Shown: positions 3,221 to 46,505 of the stretch, one piece after another
Position numbering within the stretch: the stretch's first letter is position 1
Layout of the letters: every line of letters starts with the position of its first letter
NCBI GenBank assembly: GCA_000432255.1
Contig: HF989913.1
Span: 76,755 to 140,754 of the forward strand
Source of the DNA: Acholeplasma sp. CAG:878
GTDB taxonomy: Bacteria; Bacillota_I; Bacilli_A; RF39; UBA660
Reading direction: 5' to 3'
DNA length: 64,000 bases
Program-made: the position numbers and the translations under genes
The notes under the pieces: generated by a model
Database searches by the model: none
What the model was told of the DNA's origin: nothing
Seen by the model: the letters and a program-made list of their open reading frames with translations, nothing else

Positions 3221-4483
3221 ATGCTTAAAACATTTAAACAAATCTTTAGTCCAAAAAACAAAGATATTCAAAAGCGCATTTTATTCACTCTAGGGTGCTT
3301 AATTATATTTATCGTTGGTCAAGCAATAATAGTTCCAGGAATTAATAAAGATGCATTAGGTACAAATACATTAGGTTTCTTTCAATTAATGAACTTAATG
3401 GGTGGAGGAAGCTTAGAGAGATTTTCAATTTTCGCTTTAGGTGTTATGCCATACATTACTGCATCAATTATTATTCAAATTCTATCAATGGATATTATTC
3501 CATATTTGACAGAATTAACTAAACAAGGTGGAACTGGTAGAGCGCAAATTAATAAAATTACAAGATATACTGGTATTGCTTTAGCATTTATTCAAGGTTA
3601 CGTATATTCATTTGCTTATCTAGGAAATGGAGGAAGTCTAATTAATCTTGATTATATGCAATTTGCTTTAGTTTTAACTGCTGGTACCTCTCTATTATTA
3701 TGGATAGGTGACCAAATGACAGCTAAAGGAATTGGTAATGGAATATCAATGATAATCATGGCTGGAATTATTGCTAATTTACCTACAATGTTTACAACTG
3801 CATTTAATGAAATGATTAAATCAGGAACAGTAGGTATAATTGAATTTATTCTATATGTATTAGTTTATATAGGAATAGTAATTGGAATAGTTTATGTTGA
3901 AGGAGCAGAAAGAAGAATTCAAATTCAATATGCTAATAAATCAAATAATAGTTTTGGTGGTAGACAAAATTACATTCCATTTAAACTTAATTCAGCCGGA
4001 GTAATCCCTGTAATCTTTGCTTCTACATTAGTTTCAATTCCATCATTCATAGCAGCAATTATTAAAAAAGACGCATTTACAAACTTTATTAATAAATGGA
4101 TTGTTATGAACACACCAACTGGATTTGTTTTATATATCGTTTTGATTTTCTTATTTGCATATTTTTATACATTCATGCAAATAAAACCAAAAGATACAAG
4201 TGATAATTTAAACAAAAATGGTGGGTATATACCAGGAATTAGACCGGGTGAAGACACTGAAAAATATATAAGTAAAGTATTAAGTAGAATTACAATTGTT
4301 GGAGCAACATTCCTTGCAATATTAGCAGGTACTCCTATAATATTTGGAGTAATTACAAATTTATCTAGTAATGTAACGCTTGGAGGTACAGGACTATTAA
4401 TCGTTGTTGGTGTTGCTTTAGAAACATATAAACAATTAGAAAGTCAACTACAAAGTAGAAGTTATAAAAAAGGAAGAAGATAA
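3221..4483 (+). CDS. secY: Preprotein translocase subunit SecY
   Basis: 420-aa polytopic membrane protein with conserved SecY sequence and operon position. Confidence 0.95.
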   Translation: MLKTFKQIFSPKNKDIQKRILFTLGCLIIFIVGQAIIVPGINKDALGTNTLGFFQLMNLMGGGSLERFSIFALGVMPYITASIIIQILSMDIIPYLTELTKQGGTGRAQINKITRYTGIALAFIQGYVYSFAYLGNGGSLINLDYMQFALVLTAGTSLLLWIGDQMTAKGIGNGISMIIMAGIIANLPTMFTTAFNEMIKSGTVGIIEFILYVLVYIGIVIGIVYVEGAERRIQIQYANKSNNSFGGRQNYIPFKLNSAGVIPVIFASTLVSIPSFIAAIIKKDAFTNFINKWIVMNTPTGFVLYIVLIFLFAYFYTFMQIKPKDTSDNLNKNGGYIPGIRPGEDTEKYISKVLSRITIVGATFLAILAGTPIIFGVITNLSSNVTLGGTGLLIVVGVALETYKQLESQLQSRSYKKGRR

Positions 4484-19145: not shown

Positions 19146-19264
19146 ATTTTTATTCCTCTGTTTCTAATGATACACCAAAAGCAAACAAAAAAACCATTAA
19201 CTTGTCCTAATTGTACGTTTTTGTGTCCGAAAACACAAAAAAATAAAAAAAAACAACAAAAAAA

Positions 19265-19298
19265 GTCATTTCAGACAAAAAATCGACTATTTCAGACA
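19265..19298. promoter_or_regulatory. LytTR-box-like direct repeat (two ATTTCAGACA units, 22-bp centre-to-centre) in the agrB-cspA intergenic region
   Basis: tcATTTCAGACAaaaaatcgactATTTCAGACAta; on the + strand it is followed by TTAACA, then 18 nt, then TGgTAAAAT (~19302-19335). Confidence 0.4.
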
Positions 19299-19455
19299 TA
19301 ATTTTAACAAATTTAGTTCAAAACTGGTAAAATGATAATTGCCTTTTGGTACTAGTAAAGAATGTCAAAATTTGATATATTAAAATTCTTGAAGTGGTTA
19401 GACAAATGCGTTATACTAGTATTGTAAGAGAATTACTAGAAGGGAGATTTCGGCA

Positions 19456-19668
19456 ATGCGTGGTAAAGTAAAATGGTTCAATAACGAAAAAGGTTATGGG
19501 TTCATTGAATACCGAGAAGGCGAGGATATCTTTGTACATTATTCTTCAATCTTATCTGAAGGATATAAAACACTAGTTGAAGGTCAATACGTTGAGTTTG
19601 AACTAGTGCGTACAGATAAAGGTTTACAAGCCAAAAATGTAGTAGAAATTAAAACTGCCTTAGTTTAG
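19456..19668 (+). CDS. cspA: Cold-shock protein (CspA family)
   Basis: 70 aa; RNP motifs [12 protein letters not shown] and VFVHYS. Confidence 0.9.
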
Positions 19669-19679
19669 GCGTTTTTTTT
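19656..19679 (+). terminator. Weak hairpin plus T8 after csp
   Basis: GCCTtagtttAGGC followed by gTTTTTTTT. Confidence 0.5.
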
Positions 19680-19722
19680 CGCTATTTTTTAAAATTTATA
19701 GTATAATATTGTTGGTGATAGT

Positions 19723-32601: not shown

Positions 32602-34575
32602 ATGGATTTAGAAAATGTTTATGGTATTGGCACTAAAACAATGTCATTGCTCAATAAATTGGGTATTAATAATATATCTGATTTGGTTAATTATTGTCCT
32701 TTTAGATATGATATTTTATCAAGAAGTAATCTTAATGAATTAAAAGATGGTGATAAAATAATAATTGATGGTTTAGTTGAAGTGAATCCTAGGGTTATTT
32801 ATTTAAAAAGAAAAATGGATAAAATGTCATTTGTTATTAATACAGGTAGTAAATTGCTGAACGTTTCAATTTTTAACCGTGGATTTTTAAAGCCTAGGCT
32901 TGGTGTAGGAACTAAATTAACTATAATTGGCAAATATTCGATAAAACAAAATTTAATTGTAGCTAGTGATATAAGATTTGGGCTACTTGGTAACAATGTT
33001 AAAATAGAACCTGTTTATCACGTTACTAGTGGAATTAATAGTAATATGATAAATAGTTTAATTTTAAAATGTATTGATAATTACGAATGTGTTGATTATA
33101 TTCCAAATTATTTAAAAGAGAAATACGATTTTTTATCAAAGAAACAATCTTTAAGAGAGATACATGAACCTTTAGATGAGACATTACTAAAAAGGAGTAT
33201 TATGCGCTTTAAATATGAAGAATTGTTTACTTTTATGCTTAAGGTGGCTATGCTCAAAGAGTTAAAAAAACAAGATGGTTTGAAAAGAGATGTTTCTTTT
33301 GACGAAATTTCTAAAATCATTTCTACTTTACCTTATAAGCTAACTATTGACCAATTGAAAGCGATTGATGATATTTATAATGATTTAATTTCTAATAAAA
33401 GAATGAATAGACTTTTACAAGGTGATGTTGGAAGTGGAAAAACGATTGTTTCATTTATTGCTTTATACATTAATTATTTGAGTGGCTATCAAGGAGCTTT
33501 AATGGCACCAACTGAAATATTAGCTTACCAACATTATTTGAATATGAAAAAATTATTTCCTGATTTAAGAATCGAATTATTGACTGGTAAATTAAAAGTT
33601 TCTGCTAAAAAAGATATTTATAAAAGATTAATTAATAATGAAATCGATGTTTTGATTGGTACTCATGCTTTAATAAGTAATGATGTTACTTATAATAATT
33701 TAGGATTAGTTATAACTGATGAACAACACAGATTTGGTGTTAATCAAAGAAGTAACCTAAAAAATAAGGGAATTATGCCTGATGTTTTATATATGAGTGC
33801 AACACCAATTCCAAGAACTTATGCTATAACATTATTCGGTGATATGGATATTTCTAGCATTAAAACAAAACCGAATGGTAGAAAGGAAATTAAAACTTAT
33901 TTGAAAAGTGAATCAGAAATCAAAGATGTTTTAACTTTAATGTATAATGAACTTAAAAGTGGGCATCAGGTTTATGTTATTGCTCCTTTAATTGAAGAAA
34001 GCGATAAATCGGAACTTAAAAATGTTAATGAACTTAAAGTTAAAATGGATAAAGCTTTTGGTAAATTATATAATATTGATATTATGCATGGTAAACTTTC
34101 TAACAAAGCTAAAGAAGAAGTAATGGAAAAATTTAAGAATAATGATATTCAAATACTTATAAGTACTACTGTAATAGAGGTAGGTGTTGATGTTGCTAAT
34201 GCTACTGTGATGGTTGTTTTTGATAGTTATAGATTTGGATTATCAGCCCTTCATCAGTTAAGAGGTAGAGTCGGAAGAAGTGATTTACAGTCTTATTTTA
34301 TTTTGGTAAGTAACTATGAAGCTGAAAGACTTAAGGTGTTAGTCGATACAAATGATGGTTTTAAAGTAAGTGAAGCTGACTTTAAAATGCGTGGTGGGGG
34401 AGACTTATTTGGTATAAGACAAAGTGGAGATATGAGTTTTAAATTTGCTGATTTGAAGAAAGATTATAAGATGTTATTGACTGCTAAAGAAGATAGTGAA
34501 GAATTTTTGAAGTGTTATAAGGATGATTATGAGTACATTTGTGCTCATGTAAAATTAGTTGACACTTTAGATTGA
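32602..34575 (+). CDS. recG: ATP-dependent DNA helicase RecG
   Basis: SF2 helicase motifs GDVGSGKT, DEQHRFG, SATPIPRT; N-terminal wedge domain; ATG 32602 behind RBS AAGGAGG. Confidence 0.9.
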   Translation: MDLENVYGIGTKTMSLLNKLGINNISDLVNYCPFRYDILSRSNLNELKDGDKIIIDGLVEVNPRVIYLKRKMDKMSFVINTGSKLLNVSIFNRGFLKPRLGVGTKLTIIGKYSIKQNLIVASDIRFGLLGNNVKIEPVYHVTSGINSNMINSLILKCIDNYECVDYIPNYLKEKYDFLSKKQSLREIHEPLDETLLKRSIMRFKYEELFTFMLKVAMLKELKKQDGLKRDVSFDEISKIISTLPYKLTIDQLKAIDDIYNDLISNKRMNRLLQGDVGSGKTIVSFIALYINYLSGYQGALMAPTEILAYQHYLNMKKLFPDLRIELLTGKLKVSAKKDIYKRLINNEIDVLIGTHALISNDVTYNNLGLVITDEQHRFGVNQRSNLKNKGIMPDVLYMSATPIPRTYAITLFGDMDISSIKTKPNGRKEIKTYLKSESEIKDVLTLMYNELKSGHQVYVIAPLIEESDKSELKNVNELKVKMDKAFGKLYNIDIMHGKLSNKAKEEVMEKFKNNDIQILISTTVIEVGVDVANATVMVVFDSYRFGLSALHQLRGRVGRSDLQSYFILVSNYEAERLKVLVDTNDGFKVSEADFKMRGGGDLFGIRQSGDMSFKFADLKKDYKMLLTAKEDSEEFLKCYKDDYEYICAHVKLVDTLD

Positions 34576-34616
34576 TTGGTATTGACTTTTTATAAAAATT
34601 TTTTTATAATTAGGTA

Positions 34617-34723
34617 GCATGATAGTACTAGAAAGTATCATCATGCTAGTCTCTTATATCTATAAAGAGGCTAAACCAAAACCCCCTGAAGACGGAACGA
34701 ATCAATGTTCCGTCATTTTTTTG
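34617..34723 (+). other. Structured ~110-nt element ending in an intrinsic terminator, at the recG/integrase junction
   Basis: Three consecutive stem-loops: TAGCATGA...TCATGCTA, CTCTT-atatctata-AAGAG, and GACGGAAC-gaatcaat-GTTCCGTC, then T7. Confidence 0.5.
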
Positions 34724-34815
34724 CCTTTATTTTCAAGGTTTTTCATAATTTATAATATTTCAAAACTGCTTTTACATTTACTTTTACATTTCCCACTAGG
34801 AAATGTAAGACTTTT

Positions 34816-35921
34816 TTAATCTAATTTATTCATCGTTTGAACTATCTCATCCATCTTATTTTTAAACAGGTGAGAGTAGGTATTTAATGTTTCATCAATT
34901 TTCGCATGACCTAGATATTTGACAACAATCATAATACTTGCACCATTATTAATTAAAACTGAAGCACAAGAGTGTCTAAAGTCGTGAATTCTAATTCTTT
35001 TAACACCAGACAAGTCACAAAATTTATTTTTAGTATGTCTAAGTATTCCATCACCAAGTGGTTCTTTATCTTCAAAGACAAACCATTTTTGATTAAATCC
35101 ATATTGTTTCTTTTCCCTTAAATATAATTCATGTAAATCATTCATAACTCTTTCTGGAACTGGCAATGTTCTTGTACTGGTTCTAGTTTTAGGTGTCGTA
35201 ATGATATATTCGCCAGTTGAGCCTTCCTGAGCAACATTCTTAACTACGGATAGTTCTTTATTAAAGAAATCAATATTATCCCAAGAAAGACCCTTAATTC
35301 GCCTCTGCGAAGGCCACAAAAGAATAATACTTCAAATAATGCTTTCCATTTAATATCATCTATTACTGATATAAATTGTTTAAATTCTTCCCAAGTATAG
35401 AATTGCATTTCTTTTGGTGGCTTATTTGGATCGTTAAACTTTTCCATTTTGTTATAAATAGAAGTAAAGTTAAAATCATGCCATTTAGTTCCATAATTAA
35501 GAATAGTCTTTAATAACTTATAATATCCATTCTTAGTTTTATCAGCTAAATCTAGAGCACCAACTCTTTTTCTCCAAGCAATATAGTGTTCTAATCGAAT
35601 ATCCTTAATCTTTAACTCGTAGAATTCACTTAACTCTCTAATATTTACTCTATAAGATCTTAAAGTCGTTCTTTTAACTTTATCTTTCTTATATTCATAA
35701 AACTCTTCAAATAATTGCTTAAATGTCATACCAGTAACATTTATTTCCTTAGTTTCATAACCAACTATGAAATCTCTTTCAGCTTTTAATGCCTCATTCC
35801 TAGTCATATAACTTTTTGACATATAAGGTTTTGTTCTTCCATCAACCTTAATCTTATCGTAAAAATACCATCTTCTACCATCTTTGGTAGCTTTTTCTTT
35901 TGGTAACTGTCGTACAGCCAT
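34816..35921 (-). pseudogene. int: Tyrosine recombinase (phage-type integrase) disrupted by a 1-nt frameshift
   Basis: Two overlapping minus-strand ORFs (35244-35921 N-part with SAM-like domain; 34816-35319 C-part with catalytic HDFRHS...LGH...Y). The frames join inside the conserved GLRRGEL|KGLSWDNID box and would be restored by one extra A at ~35297-35300. Confidence 0.75.
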
Positions 35922-36026
35922 TTATATACCTCCTTATTGTGCTATACTTCGAATTACCTCTTATACAACTCTAATATAGCACATAAAATAAAAAAAGTCA
36001 GGACTACCTGACTAAATATATTTGTT

Positions 36027-36722
36027 TTATGAATTACTATTATCAAATAATTGATTCATATAATCTATATGAGTTTTAATGTCACTTTCAGAAATTTTTA
36101 AAGGACCTGATGTGATATCTCCAACTAATAGTAGCATATCTTTTTTATCAATTATAGTGAAAAAATAAATTCTTCTAAATGGAGAGTCATTTATAACTTT
36201 TCTTAATCTTTCGGATTTTTCTAAATATACTAAATGTTTAATACTTTTAAAAGCTAAAAAATTTTCTCTATCATTAATAAATAATTCAAAGTATTTTAAC
36301 TCTTTGTTATAGTATTTTGATTTATAATTCTTTTCTTTAATTGTTTTAATTAAAGTTTCTATATAATCATCGTATTTTTTAAACGATTCACCAATTGTAT
36401 CCCCAATATAATGCCAATTATTGTCTAATTCGATATATAACTGATGTTTATTTAATATTCCTTGGGCTTTTCTCGGAATTCCATTTTTTAACATATCTTC
36501 CACACAATTAGGTATTTCCTTTAATCTAGCACTAAATTGGTCATAATACATATTTGTTATTTCAACGCCAAATAATTCATTATTGCCTAAATCTTTCATA
36601 ATAAAGTCCGGCCTTTCCGATGTATCATCTATTAGTGCATATTGTTTTTTATTTTTATCATTATATATATTTTTAAGAATAGTTTTTTCTTTTTCTTTTT
36701 TCTCATCCATAAGTATCACCAA
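36027..36722 (-). CDS. Hypothetical protein (231 aa) of the element
   Basis: Coding-like composition; no motif recognised. Confidence 0.5.
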   Translation of the reverse strand: MVILMDEKKEKEKTILKNIYNDKNKKQYALIDDTSERPDFIMKDLGNNELFGVEITNMYYDQFSARLKEIPNCVEDMLKNGIPRKAQGILNKHQLYIELDNNWHYIGDTIGESFKKYDDYIETLIKTIKEKNYKSKYYNKELKYFELFINDRENFLAFKSIKHLVYLEKSERLRKVINDSPFRRIYFFTIIDKKDMLLLVGDITSGPLKISESDIKTHIDYMNQLFDNSNS

Positions 36723-36756
36723 TAATATTATACAGCATTTCTTAATTACGACATAT

Positions 36757-36993
36757 TTATTTGCTTAAACTAATTATTTTTTCTAATCTGTCAATATCTA
36801 TTTTTAAAACATCAACAACAGCTTGCATCGGTAAGTCATTTCCAGGAATAAAATATCCTTCATTTATTAACTTATCTTTTATTTGCTTTTTAACCTCTAA
36901 TGCTTTATTTCTACCGCAACCTAGTAATTTCATTAAATCTGTTAAATTACACCATTGTTTAGTTATTATTTTCATTGTTTCTTCAGCACTCAT
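36757..36993 (-). CDS. Small HTH protein, possibly excisionase-like (78 aa)
   Basis: Short basic protein with an HTH-like segment (ITKQWCNLTDLMKLLGCGRNKALEVKK); assignment tentative. Confidence 0.45.
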   Translation of the reverse strand: MSAEETMKIITKQWCNLTDLMKLLGCGRNKALEVKKQIKDKLINEGYFIPGNDLPMQAVVDVLKIDIDRLEKIISLSK

Positions 36994-37007
36994 AATTAAA
37001 ACCTCCC

Positions 37008-37262
37008 TTATTTAAAACTATTTATTATTTCTTCTAATTCCTTCTGAATTTTTATATCTTCTTCAGTTAATGGCTCATCACCAGTTGGAATCTTCTGTCC
37101 ATTCCAATATTCATCCCCATAGAGTGGTGGTTCTTTGTTAACTACAATTTCATTAATGTTTAAAACATGAATGTAGTTTTGTCTATGACCTTTTTTATCA
37201 ACATTAGCTCTAATACTTGTTATATAACCATGATATTTTATATAGTCTACTAAATCTTTCAT
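37008..37262 (-). CDS. Hypothetical protein (84 aa)
   Basis: ORF in an operon-like array with neighbours. Confidence 0.4.
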   Translation of the reverse strand: MKDLVDYIKYHGYITSIRANVDKKGHRQNYIHVLNINEIVVNKEPPLYGDEYWNGQKIPTGDEPLTEEDIKIQKELEEIINSFK

Positions 37263-37375
37263 TCCGAAACCTCCTTTACCTTTTACTAAGGCCTTTGTAT
37301 AACTATTATATTTATATATTATCCTTATCTATTATGTTAGTATATTATATCTATATTGTAAGAAATAATATTCTA

Positions 37376-37645
37376 TTATGTTAGAAATTTATTTCTAATA
37401 AATATTTTTCTTCTAAAACTTTTAGGATTTTCAATTGTTATATATCCTTTATCTATTAATGATCTAATTAAAGCTGATATAGTCCTAGTAGAACATTTTA
37501 ATTTATCAGCATAATATTTATTAGATCCAAAAGCATATCCTTTTTGATTTGAATTAGAGAGTAGTAGAGTAAAAAATACAATAGCACTTTTACTAAAATT
37601 ATCATCTAATAAATCATAATATAGTTTTCCATGATTCTTGCTCAT
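37376..37645 (-). CDS. Winged-helix DNA-binding protein, replication-initiator/organiser-like (start set at MSKNHG)
   Basis: wHTH-like YYADKLKCSTRTISALIRSLIDKGYITI; shorter start reduces the overlap with the upstream gene. Confidence 0.45.
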   Translation of the reverse strand: MSKNHGKLYYDLLDDNFSKSAIVFFTLLLSNSNQKGYAFGSNKYYADKLKCSTRTISALIRSLIDKGYITIENPKSFRRKIFIRNKFLT

Positions 37646-37847
37646 CCTTAATCTTTTTCCTTTCTCTTTGTATTGCTTTATCTTTAACCATATCTTTAAA
37701 TGCTTCAGCAGATTCATTCATATATTCAGCCATAGCAACTTCTAAACAATATACTATAAAATCATTTATACTTATTCCTCTAGCATTTGCTTCAACTTTA
37801 GCTAAGTCAAATATATCTTTTCTTAGTCTTAAAACAAATTTATGCAT
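37614..37847 (-). CDS. Ribbon-helix-helix (CopG/Arc-like) DNA-binding protein
   Basis: N-terminal beta-strand plus two helices (FVLRLRKDIFDLAKVEANARGISINDFIVYCLEVAMAEY). Confidence 0.5.
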   Translation of the reverse strand: MHKFVLRLRKDIFDLAKVEANARGISINDFIVYCLEVAMAEYMNESAEAFKDMVKDKAIQRERKKIKDEQESWKTIL

Positions 37848-37861
37848 ATAAATTCACCTCC

Positions 37862-38182
37862 TTAATCATCGTATTTATATTTGCTAAATTTTGATTTAAA
37901 CTTATTCAATGCTTTACTTTCATTTGGATTAGTAACTTTATCCCATTCAAAATCAGAATATATTTGCTCAAGTAGAGCGGTAGAGTAGTATGCTTTTGAA
38001 TATAACTTATCTAGTAATGCATTATTCTTTTCAAATTCTTTTGCCATTTCTTGATTATTAATTCCAGATGACACTAGTTGAACTACAGCTTCTGAAAATG
38101 AAATGTTACATTTTCTTGCATAGTCTAAAATCATGATATCTATATCACTTGGAATAGATATATGTTTTTTAATTTTTGTCAT
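37862..38182 (-). CDS. Ribbon-helix-helix-like DNA-binding protein (106 aa)
   Basis: KHISIPSDIDIMILDYARKCNISFSEAVVQLV resembles an RHH fold. Confidence 0.45.
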   Translation of the reverse strand: MTKIKKHISIPSDIDIMILDYARKCNISFSEAVVQLVSSGINNQEMAKEFEKNNALLDKLYSKAYYSTALLEQIYSDFEWDKVTNPNESKALNKFKSKFSKYKYDD

Positions 38183-38221
38183 AACTTTTAACCTCCTTTC
38201 TTATCCACGATGTGGCTACAT

Positions 38222-38468
38222 TCTGACCACCAAATCATCAATTATTATTAAAATTAATAGAAGAGCATAAGAGATTGATATTAGCACAACAAAAAAGCCT
38301 TATCATATAAGACTTTAGTGTGATATCAAACTTATTTTGCACTTGCAAAATCGAGCCACTAGCGTGGACATTATTTTAATTAATTTCCTTATATTTAAAT
38401 AAATTATAATGGACAAATTAAATCCATAAATCTAGTATTTCATAATAATCAATCCTCCTTTGGTGGTC
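38222..38468. repeat. Perfect 11-bp inverted repeat pair (TGACCACCAAA / TTTGGTGGTCA) bracketing ~225 bp upstream of the RHH operon
   Basis: 38222-38232 and 38458-38468 read directly; each is also flanked by ATTATTA/TAATAAT. Confidence 0.6.
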
Positions 38469-38475
38469 AAACAAA

Positions 38476-38510
38476 AAGAAGATGCAATTCCATCTTCTTC
38501 GATATTTTTT
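38476..38510 (+). terminator. Hairpin plus T-run
   Basis: AAGAAGATG caattc CATCTTCTT ... atatttttt. Confidence 0.45.
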
Positions 38511-38584
38511 CTTATTATACTTAATTTACCATAATTAATAATAAAATAAAAGCCCGTTTACCATGTGAATTTCGTGTTGTTTAG

Positions 38585-39041
38585 GGGGTTGTTTTTGATA
38601 TAAAACCCTTATTTCATCTATATTTATCTCTTATTATACACATTCTATCACATCAAAATTAAAAATGGAAGGCTTTTTTTTGGCTTTTTTCTGTCCTTTT
38701 TGCCGACATTTTTTGTCCTTTTTTTGGCTTTTTTACCGACATTTTGCCGACATTTTTCCGATGCTTTGCCAACATTTTTTCGATATTTTCCATACATTTT
38801 GCTTACATTATAGTTTAACTTCCTATATTACCATTATACAAAAAGCTAACATTCCTTTCAATAGTCCTAATACGTACTTTTTCCGTACCTTTTGCGTACC
38901 TTTTCCGTATTTTTTAAATATCAACATATCTAATTATTCCTATTTTACTATATTTTATCATGTATACAGATATTTACAAGAGGGTTTTGATGTACCCGTT
39001 TAGAGGGTGCATTTTTTGTTTTAAATCCTTATTTTATATGG
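38585..39041. repeat. ~40-bp imperfect direct repeats flanking the iteron block
   Basis: GTTTAGGGGGTTGTTTTTGATATAAAACCCTTATTTCAT (38585-38625) versus GTTTAGAGGGTGCATTTTTTGTTTTAAATCCTTATTTTAT (38999-39040). Confidence 0.55.
38680..38912. repeat. Iteron-like tandem 11-bp phased repeats: ~7 copies of (G/A)CC(G/A)ACATTTT, then 4 copies of CCGTACCTTTT
   Basis: tgccgacatttt / accgacatttt / gccgacattttt / gccaacatttttt / cgatatttt / ccatacatttt ... cgtacttttt / ccgtacctttt / gcgtacctttt / ccgtatttttt. Confidence 0.6.
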
Positions 39042-39101
39042 GTTTATTAAAAAAATGTGAAAATTTTAAAAATTATTTTTTTAAAATTATTGTCAAGAGT
39101 G

Positions 39102-39140
39102 CCGAAAAATCTGGTAAAATTATATTATAAGTACTGTTCA
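39102..39140 (+). promoter_or_regulatory. Candidate promoter of the methylase operon
   Basis: TTGTCA, then 19 nt, then TGgTAAAAT (extended -10). Confidence 0.4.
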
Positions 39141-39197
39141 AAATCATATATTTTATGATATACTGTCTATAGAGGATAGATATAGTGGTGATTAATT

Positions 39198-40316
39198 ATG
39201 AAAAAAATTAGAGTTTTTGAGACATTTTCAGGAATTGGTGCACAAAATAAGGCATTAAAAAATAGCGGACTTGATTATGAAGTAGTAGCAACGAGTGATT
39301 GGTTCATTGATGCAATTTTAGCGTATGATGCTATACATTGCAAAGACGAAAAAATTAGCGTTCCTTCATATGAAAAACAAATAGAGTATTTATCAAAATT
39401 TACATTTAGTGGTGATTCAGTTAAGCCTTATCATAATTTGATGAAAAAAAGTAAAAAGGAAATAAAAAAATTATATATTGCAAATAAACGAACAAAAAAT
39501 CTCGGATCAATAACAGAAATTACTTCAAAGGTTATACCTGACCATGATTTGTTAACATATAGTTTTCCATGCCAAGATTTATCTACTGGTGGAAAGACAC
39601 GAGGAATGAGCAAAGGATCTGGAACTAGATCTGGCTTGCTATGGGAAATTGAAAGAATACTTGGTGAGTTAAATAATGAAGGTAGACTTCCAAAATATTT
39701 ATTGATGGAGAATGTTAAAGCAATCTTAGCGCCATCAAACAAAAGAGATTTTGAGATGTGGAAAAAATTTTTAGAGGATCTTGGCTATAAGAATGAAGTT
39801 ATGGTATTATCAGGAATATATTTTGGAGTGCCACAGGATAGGGCAAGATGCTTTATGGTTAGTATCCTTGGAAATAAAAAACCAAAAATCGAAAAACGTT
39901 TAAAGAAAAATTCATATCCAGCAAGTGACATAAAAAAGTTCTTAAAAACGGATTATACAAATAAGACATATAAAAAAGAAGCTGATGAAGCACAATTACC
40001 TCGAACTAGATCTAGAGAACTAATGTGGAATATTAATAAAAGGGATGTTGAAAATTTAACTTATTTTAACACGATTACATGCAATATGGATAGACAAAAC
40101 AATGCTGGCATGATATTATATGATGGACCAAAAGGAAACTCTTATCGTTTATTGACAGCACGTGAAGCATTTTTACTGATGGGATTTTCTGAAGAAGACT
40201 TTGAGAATGTAAAAAAGCTTGGATTAAGTTATAGAAAAATGATTAAATTAGCTGGTAATTCAATTGTTGTACCGGTTTTAGAAGCAATATTTAAAGTAAT
40301 GTTTGAGGAGAAATAA
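39198..40316 (+). CDS. dcm: DNA (cytosine-5)-methyltransferase
   Basis: Motif I FETFSGIGA (FxGxG); motif IV FPCQDLS (catalytic Cys); motif VI ENV (MENVKAIL); C-terminal GNSIVVPV. Confidence 0.9.
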   Translation: MKKIRVFETFSGIGAQNKALKNSGLDYEVVATSDWFIDAILAYDAIHCKDEKISVPSYEKQIEYLSKFTFSGDSVKPYHNLMKKSKKEIKKLYIANKRTKNLGSITEITSKVIPDHDLLTYSFPCQDLSTGGKTRGMSKGSGTRSGLLWEIERILGELNNEGRLPKYLLMENVKAILAPSNKRDFEMWKKFLEDLGYKNEVMVLSGIYFGVPQDRARCFMVSILGNKKPKIEKRLKKNSYPASDIKKFLKTDYTNKTYKKEADEAQLPRTRSRELMWNINKRDVENLTYFNTITCNMDRQNNAGMILYDGPKGNSYRLLTAREAFLLMGFSEEDFENVKKLGLSYRKMIKLAGNSIVVPVLEAIFKVMFEEK

Positions 40317-40317
40317 G

Positions 40318-41346
40318 ATGGATAAAGTAGTTCTGCCAATTGATAAAAAATCTTTATTTTTGAATATATTTAATGATAATGAATATGGGCATACTGCAAC
40401 TGTATCAACTCCAATTAAGCAAGGAAATTCTACAAATGAAAAATTAGCTCAAATATTCAAAGTTCCAAAACAAATAGATTTTAATGCAAAACCATTATTG
40501 GTTGATGAATTAATAAAAAACTCTAAATCTAAAATAAAAATTAATAATGTGTTTTTGTTTGATAAGATTGCAGTAAATGGTGAACTAATCGAAACTGGAA
40601 AAATTTTATATTGCATGTACATTAAGGAAGAAGTAGATTCCTCCAAAGCACAATATGGAAGAATCAAACTTCATTATCCATTAGGATTAAAATATGAAGA
40701 TAGTGACATTGATATAGACAATAAATATATTATTAATCTTATTTCAAAGAAAGTATTTAATTACGCTTTTATAGTAAATAGTTTTGAATATAACTTTGAT
40801 AATGATATATTGAATTTTAATATAACAATTATTGGGGAAAACAAAATACCATACTCAAAAGTTTTTATCAATAATAAAGGAACAGGAAATAAATTTAATA
40901 GTATTTTTAACGAATTTGCTGAATCTTATGATATGGAAATTATCTCATTAAGACAAAAATTTGGACAAGAAATTGGCCCCGATAATTATTTAGAATACAT
41001 GGAGATAGCAAAAGATAAAGCAATGGCCGAAGGAGAACTATATGCTAGAAAAAAATATAAAAATGATGTAACTAATATATCGTTACTATATCCTTATTCG
41101 TTATACGATTTTGAATGCAGAGAAGGATATAATACCAAATATTATTTAGTATTTTATACTACATCTAATAATGAATACTTTAATATATCGTCAAAAAAAC
41201 TTAAATTCATTAATGATTTTAAAAATAATGTAGAAATATTAGTAATGACAAACATTTTGAATGGGCCCAAAATATCAAAGTATAATGTAGAGCAAATACT
41301 GACATTTTCAAAGAGTATAAATTCAGTAATGCTTAGAAAGGAGTAA
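40318..41346 (+). CDS. Hypothetical protein (343 aa), translationally coupled to dcm; function unknown
   Basis: ATG 2 nt after the dcm stop, behind GAGGAG; no motif recognised. Confidence 0.55.
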   Translation: MDKVVLPIDKKSLFLNIFNDNEYGHTATVSTPIKQGNSTNEKLAQIFKVPKQIDFNAKPLLVDELIKNSKSKIKINNVFLFDKIAVNGELIETGKILYCMYIKEEVDSSKAQYGRIKLHYPLGLKYEDSDIDIDNKYIINLISKKVFNYAFIVNSFEYNFDNDILNFNITIIGENKIPYSKVFINNKGTGNKFNSIFNEFAESYDMEIISLRQKFGQEIGPDNYLEYMEIAKDKAMAEGELYARKKYKNDVTNISLLYPYSLYDFECREGYNTKYYLVFYTTSNNEYFNISSKKLKFINDFKNNVEILVMTNILNGPKISKYNVEQILTFSKSINSVMLRKE

Positions 41347-41349
41347 TCT

Positions 41350-42804
41350 ATGGGAAAGTATATTACACAAATTCCACCAGCTAAATCATTAATTAGTGGA
41401 ATAAGATCAATTGGATATAGTTTTGCGTCTTCTGTTGCAGATATTATAGATAATAGTATTACAGCAAAGGCCTCTGAAATAAATGTATATGCTGATCCGT
41501 TAGATGAACCATATTTCGTGATCTTGGACAATGGGCTAGGAATGAATTATGATGAATTAAAAAACGCAATGACATTTGGCTCAGACAGAAGTGACAAGAT
41601 AGATAATGAATTAGATTTAGGAAGATTTGGTCTTGGATTAAAGTCAGCATCTTTATCACAATGTCGAAAAATGACGGTTATTAGTAAGGAAAAAGATAGT
41701 ATAAATGGTATGTGTTATGATTTAGAAATAATTGAAGCCCAAAATGATTGGGTGCTTGAAGTACTAGATGAAAATGAAGTAAAAAGAATGCCATGTTTTG
41801 AACAATTAAATAAATATGAGACTGGAACATTAGTTATTTGGCAGAATTTTGATAAATTAGATGCATTAGCCACTAATTTTGTAACCTCTTTTAGAAATGC
41901 AGTTGCTGATGCAAAGAAACATGTTGAATTAGTATTTCATTATTATTATGATTCAGTTAGCATTTTTTTCAATAATGATAGGATTGAAAAAAGGGATCCA
42001 TTTTTAATTAATTCAGCTCCTAGACAGCAAACCGGTAGGACAGATCCTATAATAATGAATGGTTCAATTATTACAATTACACCTTATACGCTACCTTTTG
42101 CCAACACCTTAACACAAGAAGAAAAAAAATTATTAGGGAATACAAATATATATGATGAGCAGGGCTTTTATATTTATAGAAATAAAAGACTTATAATTTG
42201 GGGAAGTTGGCTCCATATGAATGTTAGAAGTGAGTTAAGCAAATTGGCTCGTGTTAAAATAGAGATACCTTCTACACTGGATAAAGAATGGAGCTTAGAT
42301 GTAAAAAAATCAACTGCAAAAATTCCGGACAAAATAAAAGATCAGATAAAAGCTTCTCTTGAGGACTCAATACACAGAAGTAAAAGAACAACAAGATTCA
42401 AAGGAGTAAAAGAGCAGCAATTTGAAGACAAGGTGTGGAATAGAATAAATTTAAGAGATGGTTTTGTTAAATATGAATTGAATAAAGAAAATCCATTATA
42501 CAAATTGTTATCAGAAAATCTTTCAGAAACAGATAAAAGATTATTGGATTCGTTTATATTTCAAATTGAGACTGGATTACCAAAGTATTCAATACAAAAT
42601 GACACTCTAGATGATTTGAAAATTGTAAATGATAGTGATAGTAATACACCAGAAGAATTAATTGAGAGAGTATGCAAAGATTTGGAATGCGTACCGAGTT
42701 CCAAAAAAGAAGCAATATTGGATGAATTACTTAAAACAGATGTATATAAGAGTATTTCTGATAAAAGAGATTTAATAATTGAGAGGATTGGTGTTTATGT
42801 CTGA
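41350..42804 (+). CDS. MORC-like GHKL (Bergerat-fold) ATPase
   Basis: N-box ADIIDNSITA; G1 box ILDNGLGM; G2 box GRFGLGLKSAS; RBS AAAGGAG. Confidence 0.75.
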   Translation: MGKYITQIPPAKSLISGIRSIGYSFASSVADIIDNSITAKASEINVYADPLDEPYFVILDNGLGMNYDELKNAMTFGSDRSDKIDNELDLGRFGLGLKSASLSQCRKMTVISKEKDSINGMCYDLEIIEAQNDWVLEVLDENEVKRMPCFEQLNKYETGTLVIWQNFDKLDALATNFVTSFRNAVADAKKHVELVFHYYYDSVSIFFNNDRIEKRDPFLINSAPRQQTGRTDPIIMNGSIITITPYTLPFANTLTQEEKKLLGNTNIYDEQGFYIYRNKRLIIWGSWLHMNVRSELSKLARVKIEIPSTLDKEWSLDVKKSTAKIPDKIKDQIKASLEDSIHRSKRTTRFKGVKEQQFEDKVWNRINLRDGFVKYELNKENPLYKLLSENLSETDKRLLDSFIFQIETGLPKYSIQNDTLDDLKIVNDSDSNTPEELIERVCKDLECVPSSKKEAILDELLKTDVYKSISDKRDLIIERIGVYV

Positions 42805-45577
42805 TTTAGAAACAAAAGCATATAGAATGTTAAAAGAATTTTTAAGAGGAGAGAATAAGTCTATAGAAAAAATAAGGGAGGCTATTGATACAATATTAGA
42901 AATGAGTATTTTCAAAGAATCAAATATAGAAGATATCAAAAATACCATATATGATGAATATATAACTAATATTGGAATTGTAAATCCTGATGCAGAATTT
43001 CTTGTTAAAGATAAAGATTTCAATAATTGGATGAAATTATCCAATGTTTCTACAAATTGCTTTGATAGATATATGGACTATTTAAGGGACATGGATTTTC
43101 CGGAAGACTCAATAGAAAAAATGACTAAGGCAACAAACGATATACTAGCTAGATGTGCTGATCCCAATAATTTAAATGACCATAAGAACTCTAAGAAAAA
43201 AGGCTTGGTAATGGGAGATATTCAATCTGGAAAAACTGCAAATTACACTGCTTTAATAAATTTGGCTGCTGATTATGGATATAAAGTTATAGTACTACTA
43301 GCTGGTATGACAGATTCTTTGAGAGAACAGACACAGAAACGTATTGATTCAGGATTTATTGGTGCCAAGAGTGATACTATAAGTAGTTCAATAATAAATT
43401 TTGTAGGCGTAGGAAAAGAAGAAAACAAGTATTATGCCATTCCTTTAACTAATGTTAATTCAGATTTTGGTAAAGTGGTTAGAGAAAATCAGAATACCAA
43501 TTCTAGCGATTTTAATAAACCACTAATATTGGTTATTAAGAAAAATAAAAGTGTGTTAACACAGGTTAAAGATTATTTAAAACCAGGAATTCATGGAATC
43601 ACTTCAGAAAATATTTTAATTATTGACGATGAAGCTGATAATGCTTCTGTTAATACCAAAAATAGTGATGATCCATCAATTATTAATAAGTTAATTCGAG
43701 ATTTATTTAATAATTTTACTATCGCTTCATATGTTGGATTTACAGCAACACCTTTTGCAAATATATTTATAAATCCATATGATGATGATTTTAATAAGGA
43801 TTTATTTCCATCAGATTTTATCGTTCAATTAAAAGAACCTTCATCATATTTTGGAGCAAATAAGGTTTTTAATAATCTTGGAAGTATTGATGAGCCTAAA
43901 TATAAGCATATAGAAATACTAGATCCGCATGAAAAAAACTTTCTACTATTAACACATAAAAAAGATGACGAAATATTTAGTGTTCTACCTGATAGTTTAA
44001 AGAAAGCAATAAATGATTTCATAATTGTAAATGTCATTAGAACATTAAGAGGGAAAGAATTTAAACATAGAACCATGATGATTAATATTTCTCGTTTTAA
44101 TGCAATCCAATATAAAATATATGATAAAATCAATGATTATATTGATTTGATGAAAAATACCATATCGCAAACTTATAAATCAGATTTTAATAATTTTATT
44201 AGAGATCCTTATATGAATGATTTATATGAAGAATATAATGATGAATTTTTCTCTGAAATAAGAGAAGAATTTACATGGGATCAAATTCAAGAAGGTTTAA
44301 ATAACGAGATTCAACAATTTATAGTTACAGTAGTAAATAATAACAATAAGAAAAATAGATTTAATTATGATAATTATGAAAAAGAAGGAGCTAGAGTAAT
44401 TGCGATTGGGGGATTTATTCTATCGAGAGGTCTTACTTTAGAGGGATTAATGATAAGCTACTTCAATAGAAAAGGCAATGCTTATGACACAGTATTACAG
44501 ATGTGTAGATGGTTTGGGTACAGGCCAGGATATGAAGATTTATGCAGAATATATATGACTCAAGAAAATATTGATAATTTCGAGGATGTAATAGATGCCG
44601 TATCAAATTTAAAAGAGCAATTTAAACAAATGGATGTAGAAAATAAAACACCAGAGGATTTTGGATTAATGGTAAAACAATCGCCAGCTAGATTAAATAT
44701 GCAAATGTTTATTTCGAGTGGAGAAGAGCTTGAAAAATTTGAAAAGATGGGGATTACTGCTAAAAACAAAATGAGAAATACCGAGGAAAAAATAATAACA
44801 CTAAATTATAGTGGAATTGCTACTGATACATCAAAGCTATTTAATGATAAAGCAAAAAATGAAGAAAACAAAAATACAATCGATTTATTATTTAAAAGTT
44901 TAAAAGATAAAGAATTAAATTTAGAGTATGTTAATGGTAGATTAATGGTTCAAAGAATACCGAAAGGCGTTATTTCTGATTTTATTAACAAATTTAAACT
45001 ACCATTTCTAAATAAGAGTTTTGATACAGAGAGTTTATCAGAATATATCAAGAATTCTGTCTTCATGCCAGAATGGGATTTAGTTATAGCAACTGGTTCT
45101 AAGAATGATAATGATTATTGGAACTTCGAAGACTATAATATACCAGTTGTAACTCGTTCGTTTGATATGAATTATTCAGATAACATAATACGTATTTCTG
45201 GAAATAAAAACAGATTGTATGAACCTGGTATTTTTAATAGTGGTTTGAATGATGAACAATTATCACAAGCAAATATGAACATGGTTTATCATGAAAGAAA
45301 AAATCTTATTGCAGAAGACTATTTAAATATTCAAAGGCGCCCATTATTGGTAATATACCCAATTAGGTTAAAAAAGAAAAAGAATTCATCAATCAATGAT
45401 TCTGAAATGAGAGCAATTAGTAATTTTAATAATGGAACTCCATTGTTCGGAATTGCCTTAGGTTTTCCTGGCATTAAAACAAACGAAAGAGTTAGCTACA
45501 GACTAAATAAAGTTAAGATTGAGCAATTATCTCTTGATTTTGAATATGAGGAGGAATATGATCCTAATGAAGATTAA
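42797..45577 (+). CDS. Z1-domain-like P-loop NTPase (928 aa)
   Basis: Walker A GDIQSGKT; DEAD-like Walker B IIDDEADNAS; ATG 42797 behind GAGAGGATTGGTG; overlaps the GHKL ATPase stop. Confidence 0.6.
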   Translation: MSDLETKAYRMLKEFLRGENKSIEKIREAIDTILEMSIFKESNIEDIKNTIYDEYITNIGIVNPDAEFLVKDKDFNNWMKLSNVSTNCFDRYMDYLRDMDFPEDSIEKMTKATNDILARCADPNNLNDHKNSKKKGLVMGDIQSGKTANYTALINLAADYGYKVIVLLAGMTDSLREQTQKRIDSGFIGAKSDTISSSIINFVGVGKEENKYYAIPLTNVNSDFGKVVRENQNTNSSDFNKPLILVIKKNKSVLTQVKDYLKPGIHGITSENILIIDDEADNASVNTKNSDDPSIINKLIRDLFNNFTIASYVGFTATPFANIFINPYDDDFNKDLFPSDFIVQLKEPSSYFGANKVFNNLGSIDEPKYKHIEILDPHEKNFLLLTHKKDDEIFSVLPDSLKKAINDFIIVNVIRTLRGKEFKHRTMMINISRFNAIQYKIYDKINDYIDLMKNTISQTYKSDFNNFIRDPYMNDLYEEYNDEFFSEIREEFTWDQIQEGLNNEIQQFIVTVVNNNNKKNRFNYDNYEKEGARVIAIGGFILSRGLTLEGLMISYFNRKGNAYDTVLQMCRWFGYRPGYEDLCRIYMTQENIDNFEDVIDAVSNLKEQFKQMDVENKTPEDFGLMVKQSPARLNMQMFISSGEELEKFEKMGITAKNKMRNTEEKIITLNYSGIATDTSKLFNDKAKNEENKNTIDLLFKSLKDKELNLEYVNGRLMVQRIPKGVISDFINKFKLPFLNKSFDTESLSEYIKNSVFMPEWDLVIATGSKNDNDYWNFEDYNIPVVTRSFDMNYSDNIIRISGNKNRLYEPGIFNSGLNDEQLSQANMNMVYHERKNLIAEDYLNIQRRPLLVIYPIRLKKKKNSSINDSEMRAISNFNNGTPLFGIALGFPGIKTNERVSYRLNKVKIEQLSLDFEYEEEYDPNED

Positions 45578-46505
45578 TTTTGAAGATAAATTTAAAGAAC
45601 TAAACGCAATTAGCAATATATTAAAAAAGGTTGAAAGTAATAATAAAGTAAAGATTTTTTATGGTTTATCGAAAGAAGGTAAAAAAAGATTAGCATTTTT
45701 ATCAACAATTGTTCCTAGTCAAATAGAATCTACAAAAATGATAAGTGTTAGTTATTATAAAGATAATGAAAATTCAAATTGGTTAAGTTTTGATCTAGAA
45801 AATAATAACTATTCCAATTTATTCTATACTTTTTGTACAGATATGGTTAATTCATTGAGTGGATTAAATGATGAAAAAGAAGAATTAGAATATTTAAAAC
45901 AAAGATTTTATAACTGGAAAAAGATGTTTCAAAATATTTCTACTAAAGAATTATCAGAGGAAAAAGAGCAGGGAATATATGGAGAATTGTATTTTTTGTA
46001 CAAGTATATGATTCCCAAATATGGTGTAGAGAAATCTATTTTATCATGGGCAGGGCCACATAAATTTAATAAAGACTTTTCAATTGACGAAACTTGGTAC
46101 GAAATTAAAACATCAAGTGTTAATGCTAATACAATTGAAATAAGATCAATTAATCAATTAGATTCAGATGTTGATGGTTTTCTAACTGTAGTTAAAGTTG
46201 AAAAAATGTCTATGGAATATAGAGGAGAATTGTCATCTATTTTTGAATTAATTCAAGCTATCATGGGTGAAATTACGAGTATTCAAATTCAAGATGATTT
46301 TCTTAATAAATTAATTGAATTAGGTGTTGGACCTGAAAATAATTTTGGCTCACGCCGCTATGACACAAAAAATATATTATTATATAGTGTGTCAGATAAA
46401 TTTCCTAAGCTTACAAGAAAAAATATAACATTCACTGAAATAGAAAATGTTACTTATACTATTAATCTTTCACAAATTGATAGATTTAAGGTGGAGGAAT
46501 TATGA
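45567..46505 (+). CDS. PD-(D/E)xK-fold nuclease candidate (312 aa)
   Basis: Motif elements GIYGELYFL (E), KDFSIDET (D) and WYEIKT (ExK) in canonical order; RBS GAGGAGGA; start ATG 45567. Confidence 0.55.
   Translation: MKINFEDKFKELNAISNILKKVESNNKVKIFYGLSKEGKKRLAFLSTIVPSQIESTKMISVSYYKDNENSNWLSFDLENNNYSNLFYTFCTDMVNSLSGLNDEKEELEYLKQRFYNWKKMFQNISTKELSEEKEQGIYGELYFLYKYMIPKYGVEKSILSWAGPHKFNKDFSIDETWYEIKTSSVNANTIEIRSINQLDSDVDGFLTVVKVEKMSMEYRGELSSIFELIQAIMGEITSIQIQDDFLNKLIELGVGPENNFGSRRYDTKNILLYSVSDKFPKLTRKNITFTEIENVTYTINLSQIDRFKVEEL

Follow-up and report, generated by a model that had tools for sequence, protein, structure and literature searches.

An intergenic block of 11-bp repeats lies ahead of the core genes of a small integrative island in Acholeplasma sp. 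CAG:878, within a 64,000-nucleotide stretch of contig HF989913.1 (positions 76,755 to 140,754; hereafter the window). We find that this block is a genuine cis element, conserved and unusually regular, in an island family that is new; it is best placed among the known helically phased repeat arrays of autoregulated promoters. Tentatively, we interpret it as an intrinsically curved promoter region in the leader of the island, which would be operated by an island-encoded ribbon-helix-helix (RHH) protein. From sequence comparisons, a repressor-bound promoter switch appears most likely and is preferred over a replication origin.

Two phased repeat clusters flank a near-consensus promoter

Between 38665 and 38917 we observe the 11-bp phased repeats reported in a preliminary description of this DNA, and somewhat more of them. 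Identity at a lag of 11 bp is 0.56 across the block, compared with 0.32 ± 0.03 after shuffling (2000 shuffles, maximum 0.41). This is the strongest 11-bp periodicity of the window: the top eleven 250-bp segments for lag-11 identity all overlap the block or its immediate flank (0.43–0.55), and the best segment away from it reaches 0.41. The motif CCGACATTTT, with at most one mismatch, occurs 11 times in the window versus 3.6 expected, and four of these occurrences are clustered at the block.

The repeats form two clusters, separated by a gap of 66 bp that corresponds to six non-repeat units (6 × 11 bp). In the longer cluster, the clear units (38676–38807) and one degenerate unit (38665–38675) share a single 11-bp phase. 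Read on the plus strand, each unit consists of T4–8 and then a short G+C core, as in TTTTGCCGACA, TTTTTTGTCCT and TTTTTTGGCTT; approximately eight cores are CCGACA-like and the remainder are of the GGC or GTCC types. On the minus strand the short G+C core precedes A4–8 (TGTCGGCAAAA, AGGACAAAAAA, AAGCCAAAAAA and similar). The shorter cluster contains four units, CGTAC(C/T)TTTT on the plus strand. All left-hand island genes are encoded on the minus strand, and it is on this strand that the block makes sense. The gap contains a leftward-reading, near-consensus sigma-A-type promoter, P2, which matches the consensus at 11 of 12 positions, the best of the region. The shorter cluster, with the minus-strand core GTACG, ends 5 bp ahead of the P2 −35, and the longer one accounts for roughly the initial 150 nt of the leader, at approximately +20 to +160 of the predicted P2 transcript, which continues through a promoter-like module (module A) up to a terminator-like hairpin. 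We refer to the two clusters as the upstream GTACG cluster and the transcribed, or long, array (Table 1).

In a wedge model, the predicted curvature of both arrays is in the top ~1% of the window; the parameters follow Bolshoy et al. 1991 and are approximate. The unit register runs unbroken across both clusters in the window. We rejected one continuous helical register over the two, as their A-tracts are about half a turn apart and the phase relation is not kept in relatives. Elsewhere in the window, the intergenic region 19146–19722 contains many A-tracts with short cores (ACACAAAAAAA, CAACAAAAAAAGTC and two copies of TTTCAGAC) and includes the 150-bp segment with the strongest predicted curvature in the window, so that phased A-tracts may be a general feature of promoters in this host.

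The block does not appear to be coding. The plus-strand Phe/Cys-rich open reading frame (ORF) at 38665–39003, already considered spurious in the preliminary description, has no family match, is not conserved and is broken by 11-bp indels in close relatives; it is a by-product of the repeats. A minus-strand Lys-rich ORF of 49 residues was rejected as a gene for lack of family support and of conservation, and it too is broken by 11-bp indels. Among the relatives, no ORF across the array is conserved.

Sequence is conserved upstream of P2 and helical period downstream

Using the island's winged helix-turn-helix (wHTH) protein and its 106-residue protein as queries, we recovered ~60 related loci from gut metagenomes and metagenome-assembled genomes labelled Bacilli, Mycoplasmatota or "Clostridium sp. 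CAG" (numbered L001 and so on). The preliminary description had suggested a search for similar arrays in other genomes, and these are readily found: an array of 11-bp period is present at the same position in ~45 loci that extend far enough upstream, in the same architecture and with differing defence cargo.

The upstream cluster of the relatives contains 3–6 units of GTACG(G/C)AAAA(A/G), with A-tracts at fixed distances of −10/−21/−32/−43/−54 from the start of the P2 −35. The GTACG core is conserved across all tyrosine-integrase island lineages that have the upstream cluster; in the ten array-bearing loci of this kind that were aligned in register, core and phase to the −35 are both kept. Tandem Repeats Finder (TRF) detects the GTACG(G/C)AAAA unit in many more loci, including ones in which the wHTH is only 61% identical. 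The promoter is conserved as well. Its −35 region, GAC(A/T)ATTGAAAGG, is present in all array-bearing loci, and the −10 is either TATAAT or of the TGnTAAAAT type, with departures from TATAAT carrying the TG-extended motif.

For the transcribed array, the period is always 11 (best period 11.0–11.5) and the cores are lineage-specific: TGTCGGC, AGAAC, CACCTG, TGAGAC, GGACA or GTACC. Among the closest relatives, every difference in array length is an exact 11-bp indel, and core substitutions are frequent. Units composed of A4 and a 7-nt core, A6 and 5 nt, or A8 and 3 nt all sum to 11 bp. We asked if the cores co-vary with the RHH-like N-terminus of the 106-residue protein and rejected this idea: cores vary between loci with identical N-termini, and L013 and L087 present the opposite case, with differing N-termini and the same core. 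The overall pattern fits selection on the long array for helical period and A-tracts, and on the short array for sequence.

The block accompanies the RHH gene

Every locus with an intact gene for the 77-residue RHH protein and enough upstream sequence carries the block. In L001–4, a single module replaces the two modules that flank the block in the window, P2 and the arrays are missing, and the start codon of the RHH gene is mutated (ATG to AGG), such that the product would lack the DNA-reading beta-strand. In L011/12, both RHH genes, the GTACG cluster and P2 are missing and a short degenerate array is retained. The wHTH of these loci is 88% (L001–4) and 94% (L011/12) identical to the window copy, and L001-type islands are common, occurring on many contigs and in two chromosomal contexts. 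These patterns indicate that the block is accessory and follows the RHH genes, not the wHTH. A conserved tandem core co-occurring with an RHH gene is what characterizes an RHH operator array, here over a small number of independent events, and the strongest candidate for binding the GTACG units appears to be the 77-residue RHH. Of the three roles suggested in the preliminary description, a binding array for the RHH or wHTH protein is the best supported by these comparisons. This applies to the GTACG cluster only.

A candidate RHH-operated promoter switch

What the sequences show is the repeats and their phasing, a consensus-like promoter, a pattern of conservation and joint occurrence with the RHH gene; that a protein binds, which protein it is and how regulation results are inferences, set out below. 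An island RHH, most likely the 77-residue protein, would bind cooperatively along one DNA face to the GTACG(G/C)A4–5 units as its operators, and the A-tracts of these units would double as an UP-like element. The 12–13 downstream units would be transcribed leader DNA, constrained only in 11-bp period and A-tract, and would confer intrinsic curvature with a left-handed writhe. The shape of this array could serve to lengthen or wrap the repressor complex or to hold a supercoil loop in place, and could in this way set the strength and supercoil sensitivity of P2. A terminator, a tiny ORF and a conserved hairpin would lie in the path of P2 transcripts before these reach the core genes. Given this layout, the whole region would be an autoregulated switch of the operon that includes Xis and Int.

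Several observations weigh against this proposal. Between P2 and the first core gene lie ~640 nt and two terminator-like hairpins, and thus P2 may give rise to an RNA of its own. The co-loss of RHH genes and arrays comprises few independent events, and linkage alone could explain it. In the L020 lineage the RHH is intact and only a transcribed array is present, GGA-rich (AAGGACAAAAAA × 8), with the upstream GTACG cluster missing. The phase between the two clusters varies among loci, which argues against a single continuous wrapped complex. A sister group of islands has only the wHTH and an SSB-like (single-stranded DNA-binding) gene, followed by a large serine recombinase, and the RHH genes are missing. 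Sister islands L022–L026 carry 12-bp arrays with TAC-containing cores (GTTACACAAAT × 5, GATACTAAAAA × 7; for example, L022 4695–4755 and L025 4656–4720), positioned directly upstream of a P1-like promoter and upstream of the wHTH gene, which would fit the wHTH as binder instead. Finally, the curvature estimate is approximate, and all of the support is sequence-based.

Organization of the leader and the island

The features surrounding the block are listed in Table 1. Modules A and B, each ~120 bp and promoter-like, are homologous to each other in alignment. They contain the ~40-bp direct repeats that the preliminary description noted on either side of the block. The two copies are 76% identical over 42 columns, and their local alignment score of 30, compared with 20.8 ± 2.8 in shuffles (maximum 33), is weak taken alone. 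Two facts lead us to accept them as real: relatives conserve both copies, and these copies form the cores of the two longer homologous modules. Module B marks the boundary with the variable cargo. Whichever cargo is present, the block goes with the core side, and its phase is locked to a promoter on the strand opposite to the methylase gene; thus, the earlier idea that curved DNA activates the methylase promoter is not supported.

Table 1. Positions of the repeat clusters, predicted leader elements and island genes in the window
Feature	Position	Strand	Description
Upstream GTACG cluster	38867..38910	minus	4 units, ATACGGAAAAG / GTACGCAAAAG / GTACGGAAAAA / GTACGTATTAG; candidate operator and UP-like element
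Promoter P2	38833..38861	minus	−35 TTGAAA (38861..38856), 17-nt spacer, −10 TATAAT (38838..38833); in the 66-bp gap
Transcribed (long) array	38665..38807	minus	12 clear units of exactly 11 bp each and 1 degenerate unit
Module B	38925..39050	minus	promoter-like P1 and right-hand flanking direct repeat (38998-39037)
Promoter-like P1	38979..38952	minus	TTGTAA-16-TAAAAT with TG; upstream of the GTACG units
Module A	38500..38640	minus	homologue of module B; P3-like TATAAT region; left-hand direct repeat (38579-38617)
Intrinsic-terminator-like hairpin	38475..38500	minus	GAAGAAGATGGAATTGCATCTTCTT followed by a T run; closes the P2 leader; conserved in relatives
Three-codon ORF MKY*	38432..38443	minus	strong AGGAGG ribosome-binding site at 38451-38458; directly after the terminator hairpin
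Conserved hairpin element ("cons")	38250..38356	minus	24 pairs, 9 with compensatory changes (11 loci)
First core gene, 106 residues	37862..38182	minus	RHH-like N-terminus, then a long helix
77-residue RHH protein	37614..37847	minus	HicB/CopG/Arc-like
89-residue wHTH	37376..37645	minus	HTH_36/DnaD_N; resembles the N-terminal domain of phage replication initiators
84-residue remnant of SSB/PriB-like OB-fold gene	37008..37262	minus	full-length family form 141-147 residues
Xis-like gene, 78 residues	36757-36993	minus	
231-residue gene	within 34816..36993	minus	function unassigned
Tyrosine integrase	34816-35921	minus	frameshifted; adjoins recG
Defence cargo	39198..46505	plus, divergent	Dcm methylase, unknown protein, HATPase_c_3, Z1, DUF4420

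At the position of the three-codon ORF, relatives have ORFs of 2–7 codons (MKT*, MNKKYIT*, MKEKENSP*). The conserved hairpin element has two invariant flanks, TTTTGCAAGTGCAAAATAAG and CTCTTATGCTCTT, a variable stem and, in most versions, an inner terminator-like hairpin; Rfam contains no match to it. No other non-coding piece of the island family is as conserved, and even array-less islands keep this element, which makes it a candidate structured leader, attenuator, origin of transfer (oriT) or site resembling a single-strand origin (sso).

For the 106-residue protein, a PDB search gave no significant match to its fold, and the weak matches are rich in RHH proteins. The SSB/PriB-like gene, 141–147 residues at full length, is universally linked in the island family. 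An intact copy is present at L001 5384–5827, and an intact 147-residue relative is predicted to adopt an SSB/PriB-like oligonucleotide/oligosaccharide-binding (OB) fold (Foldseek probability 1.0, E 4e-7). In the window, this gene and the integrase are both broken, indicating that this island copy is decayed and probably immobile. No convincing direct repeat that could represent attachment (att) sites was found between the int-side junction and anything downstream, which leaves the far end of the island undefined. Genes for a relaxase, ParM, ParA or TubZ are found neither in the window island nor in any related island.

The relatives have a core module common to all and a divergently oriented cargo that varies: the Dcm/Z1 system; Dcm+Dcm+HNH; NUDIX with a DUF3427 helicase and MazG; type I restriction; and others. 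One island type is found in differing chromosomal contexts. The relatives make up a family of small integrative islands that have a hotspot for cargo. In L005 (6072–8765) and L085/L086, the core itself contains a second slot, between the Xis-like gene and the integrase, which holds a UvrD/PcrA-like helicase with a Top1-type zinc ribbon.

As in P4-like satellites (PMC9122126), a small integrative element here combines a conserved core with a hotspot of exchangeable anti-phage genes. The island core genes are unrelated to those of P4-like satellites, and capsid, packaging and helper-interaction genes were not found. We rejected a link to helper phages or satellites: the wHTH has no relatives in IMG/VR, the phage collection gave no blastn match to the region, and a scan of IMG/VR with GTACGGAAAARGTACG returned a match count of about chance (our own rough estimate) and no related arrays. 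Unrelated viral contigs of IMG/VR (L035/L038, ~4260–4320; L031/L044) contain short GTACG-type 11-bp repeat runs, for example GGTACGGAAAAAGTACGATTTTTGTACGAATTTAGTATGATTTT.

Comparison with known repeat arrays

Helically phased A-tracts occur upstream of bacterial and phage promoters, where their phase to the −35 sets promoter strength (PMC9825172). The island resembles these promoters: A-tracts at the helical repeat lie upstream of the −35, in a phase that is fixed in all array-bearing lineages. It differs in that the tracts lie inside a conserved GTACG repeat and that a second, longer array is located downstream of the start site.

In the StbA/stbS and ParR systems, small proteins bind on one DNA face to direct repeats with an 11-bp cycle in autoregulated promoters (bioRxiv 10.1101/2022.04.29.490116). 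Like stbS of R388, the block comprises two sets of short 11-bp-cycle direct repeats in the promoter of an operon for small DNA-binding proteins, with autoregulation being proposed here, and an element-encoded NTPase is absent. In contrast to the island, R388 is a conjugative plasmid whose StbA is a helix-turn-helix protein, and a single 9-bp consensus is common to all ten stbDR repeats. The island is integrative, its candidate binders are RHH-like and a core is conserved only in the upstream set; the downstream cores vary freely, unlike the single shared repeat consensus of this NTPase-less centromere.

In the parC site of plasmid R1, 5+5 iterons of 11 bp are arranged around the promoter. The block shares with R1 parC/ParR (PMC3130281) its two arms of 11-bp repeats around a promoter, here 4 units upstream and 12–13 downstream of P2, strong intrinsic curvature (predicted for the island) and an RHH protein encoded nearby (type II centromere-binding RHH proteins have ~100–120 residues). 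Unlike type II (ParMRC) systems, no ParM gene is found in the window island or any related locus, the RHH genes are ~640 nt and terminator-like hairpins away from the promoter, and the downstream units are not conserved in sequence. The RHH protein ParG coats boxes spaced by AT-rich DNA (PMC3130281). Its site in TP228, parH-OF, is likewise an array of short degenerate boxes with AT-rich spacers that also serves as operator, RHH binding being proposed for the island. It differs from the island block in its 8-bp spacing (4-bp boxes and 4-bp spacers), its lack of intrinsic curvature and the presence of the ParF ATPase.

Among 72,556 plasmids, the only match to the region is on the Staphylococcus capitis plasmid NZ_CP110785 (L080 3484–3560, ~44930–45010). 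Seven repeats of GGTAC(G/C)NAAAA at 11-bp spacing lie there between a conserved palindrome (TTTGACAGTGTCAAA) and a 94-residue RHH-like gene, directly upstream of the latter, and the operon continues with a 130-residue gene and a MobP2 relaxase. Staphylococcus epidermidis homologues (50–54% identical) have different cores at the same place, of the TAGCTACCCAAA type; homologous MobP2/MobL modules thus carry differing repeat cores, as do the islands. These modules (NZ_CP110785, NZ_CP066374) encode a relaxase and the island family does not. The RHH region of the S. capitis protein aligns weakly with the 106-residue family (hhalign probability 26%), and we found no experimental characterization of the Staphylococcus arrays in the literature. 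The match shows that GTAC and A-tract repeats at 11-bp spacing recur ahead of operons apparently led by RHH genes, and it also brings an oriT-like role into consideration.

Alternative explanations

A replication origin, another role suggested in the preliminary description, is unlikely. The repeats would then be iterons bound by the 89-residue wHTH, the SSB-like protein would stabilize the opened AT-rich DNA beside the clusters or between them, and the excised island would replicate. The island core is replication-like: the wHTH matches N-terminal domains of phage replication initiators (PHROG 186, 19658 and 428; E 5e-10 to 4e-8), and the linked 141–147-residue protein has a predicted SSB/PriB fold. 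The gap between the two repeat clusters is AT-rich, and in the sister islands the 12-bp arrays lie just upstream of the wHTH gene. The origins of Staphylococcus aureus pathogenicity islands (SaPI) and of phage lambda have two sets of short direct repeats flanking AT-rich DNA, near an initiator-type wHTH gene. Unlike the repeats of those origins, the island cores do not track the wHTH and the block is dispensable in close relatives: it is missing in L001–4 and L011/12, and the long-array cores differ between islands with ~95% identical wHTH. Thus, with wHTH proteins 88–96% identical, either the block is lacking or its cores differ. A helicase or primase module is also absent from the island, and the wHTH is a bare DNA-binding domain, with the recruiting domain missing. 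The fixed phase to the −35 points to transcription. Matches to DnaA boxes are at chance level in the window and unclustered at the block, and in a region that is AT-rich throughout no single unwinding element stands out. The origin proposal is weakened by the absence of the block beside wHTH proteins 88–94% identical and by the differing long-array cores; what speaks for it is the replication-like core.

A purely structural promoter element is a rather improbable explanation. Duplicated phased A-tracts would be kept for curvature or supercoil sensing, with no dedicated binder. The long array conserves only period and A-tract and has a high predicted curvature, A-tract-rich, predicted-curved intergenic DNA is present elsewhere in the host (19146–19722), and bacterial genomes typically show a period of ~11 bp, which is linked to supercoiled pitch (PMC4132750; PMC9825172). 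These observations would suit such an element. The conservation of the upstream GTACG core over diverged lineages, while the neighboring array cores drift, argues against it, as does the co-occurrence of the block with the RHH gene.

We are equally doubtful of a broader role, in which the block would be the cis assembly site of an undescribed minimal-island family. The RHH and/or the wHTH would polymerize on the phased array into a wrapped filament, which would start replication of the excised circle, or segregate it or hand it over (as an NTPase-less centromere or an oriT in trans), and would not merely tune a promoter. The minimal core of the family may then consist of an initiator-type wHTH, an SSB-like protein and a recombinase, ferrying exchangeable anti-phage systems.

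A transfer or segregation site, either an oriT accessory array served by a relaxase in trans or an NTPase-less, stbS-type centromere of the excised circle, is very unlikely. It would draw on the only plasmid match, an 11-bp GGTACG-A4 array ahead of an RHH-like gene and MobP2 relaxase operon, on the conserved hairpin with invariant flanks ~400 nt downstream, and on the layout of two repeat sets around a promoter, which resembles stbS and parC. Opposed to this, no island has a relaxase, ParM, ParA or TubZ gene, no nick motif was identified at the hairpin, array-less islands appear mobile, and the protein match to Staphylococcus is weak.

The least probable explanation acts at the level of RNA: a ~350-nt A-rich repeat RNA from P2, as leader or small RNA, would titrate or recruit an RNA-binding factor or tune read-through into the core operon. 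It would agree with the position of the long array wholly within the transcribed part, from P2 to the conserved terminator, and with the GGA-rich units of some lineages, such as L020; against it, the P2 transcript folds no better than shuffles (z = −1.7), the unit cores are not conserved, and the strict 11-bp length over differing unit types fits a DNA helical constraint better. A known RNA family at the block was rejected, as a Rfam scan of 34000–40000 gave no match at E = 1 in the intergenic region and a single weak match inside recG.

Implications for defence islands of gut Bacilli

The island family is abundant and apparently undescribed; in the IMG/VR, phage and plasmid collections searched we found no relatives, the one plasmid match being the Staphylococcus repeat region. 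The control region of these islands, which carry defence systems between uncultured gut Bacilli with small genomes, is marked by the repeats. For mining new defence cargo, the conserved junction next to module B offers a practical landmark. The long array is a clean natural case of selection on helical period and A-tracts with the core sequence left free, and its contrast with the sequence-selected neighboring cluster could separate shape readout from base readout. Knowing the cis site and the small protein that switch these islands on would be a first step to understanding how their cargo spreads.

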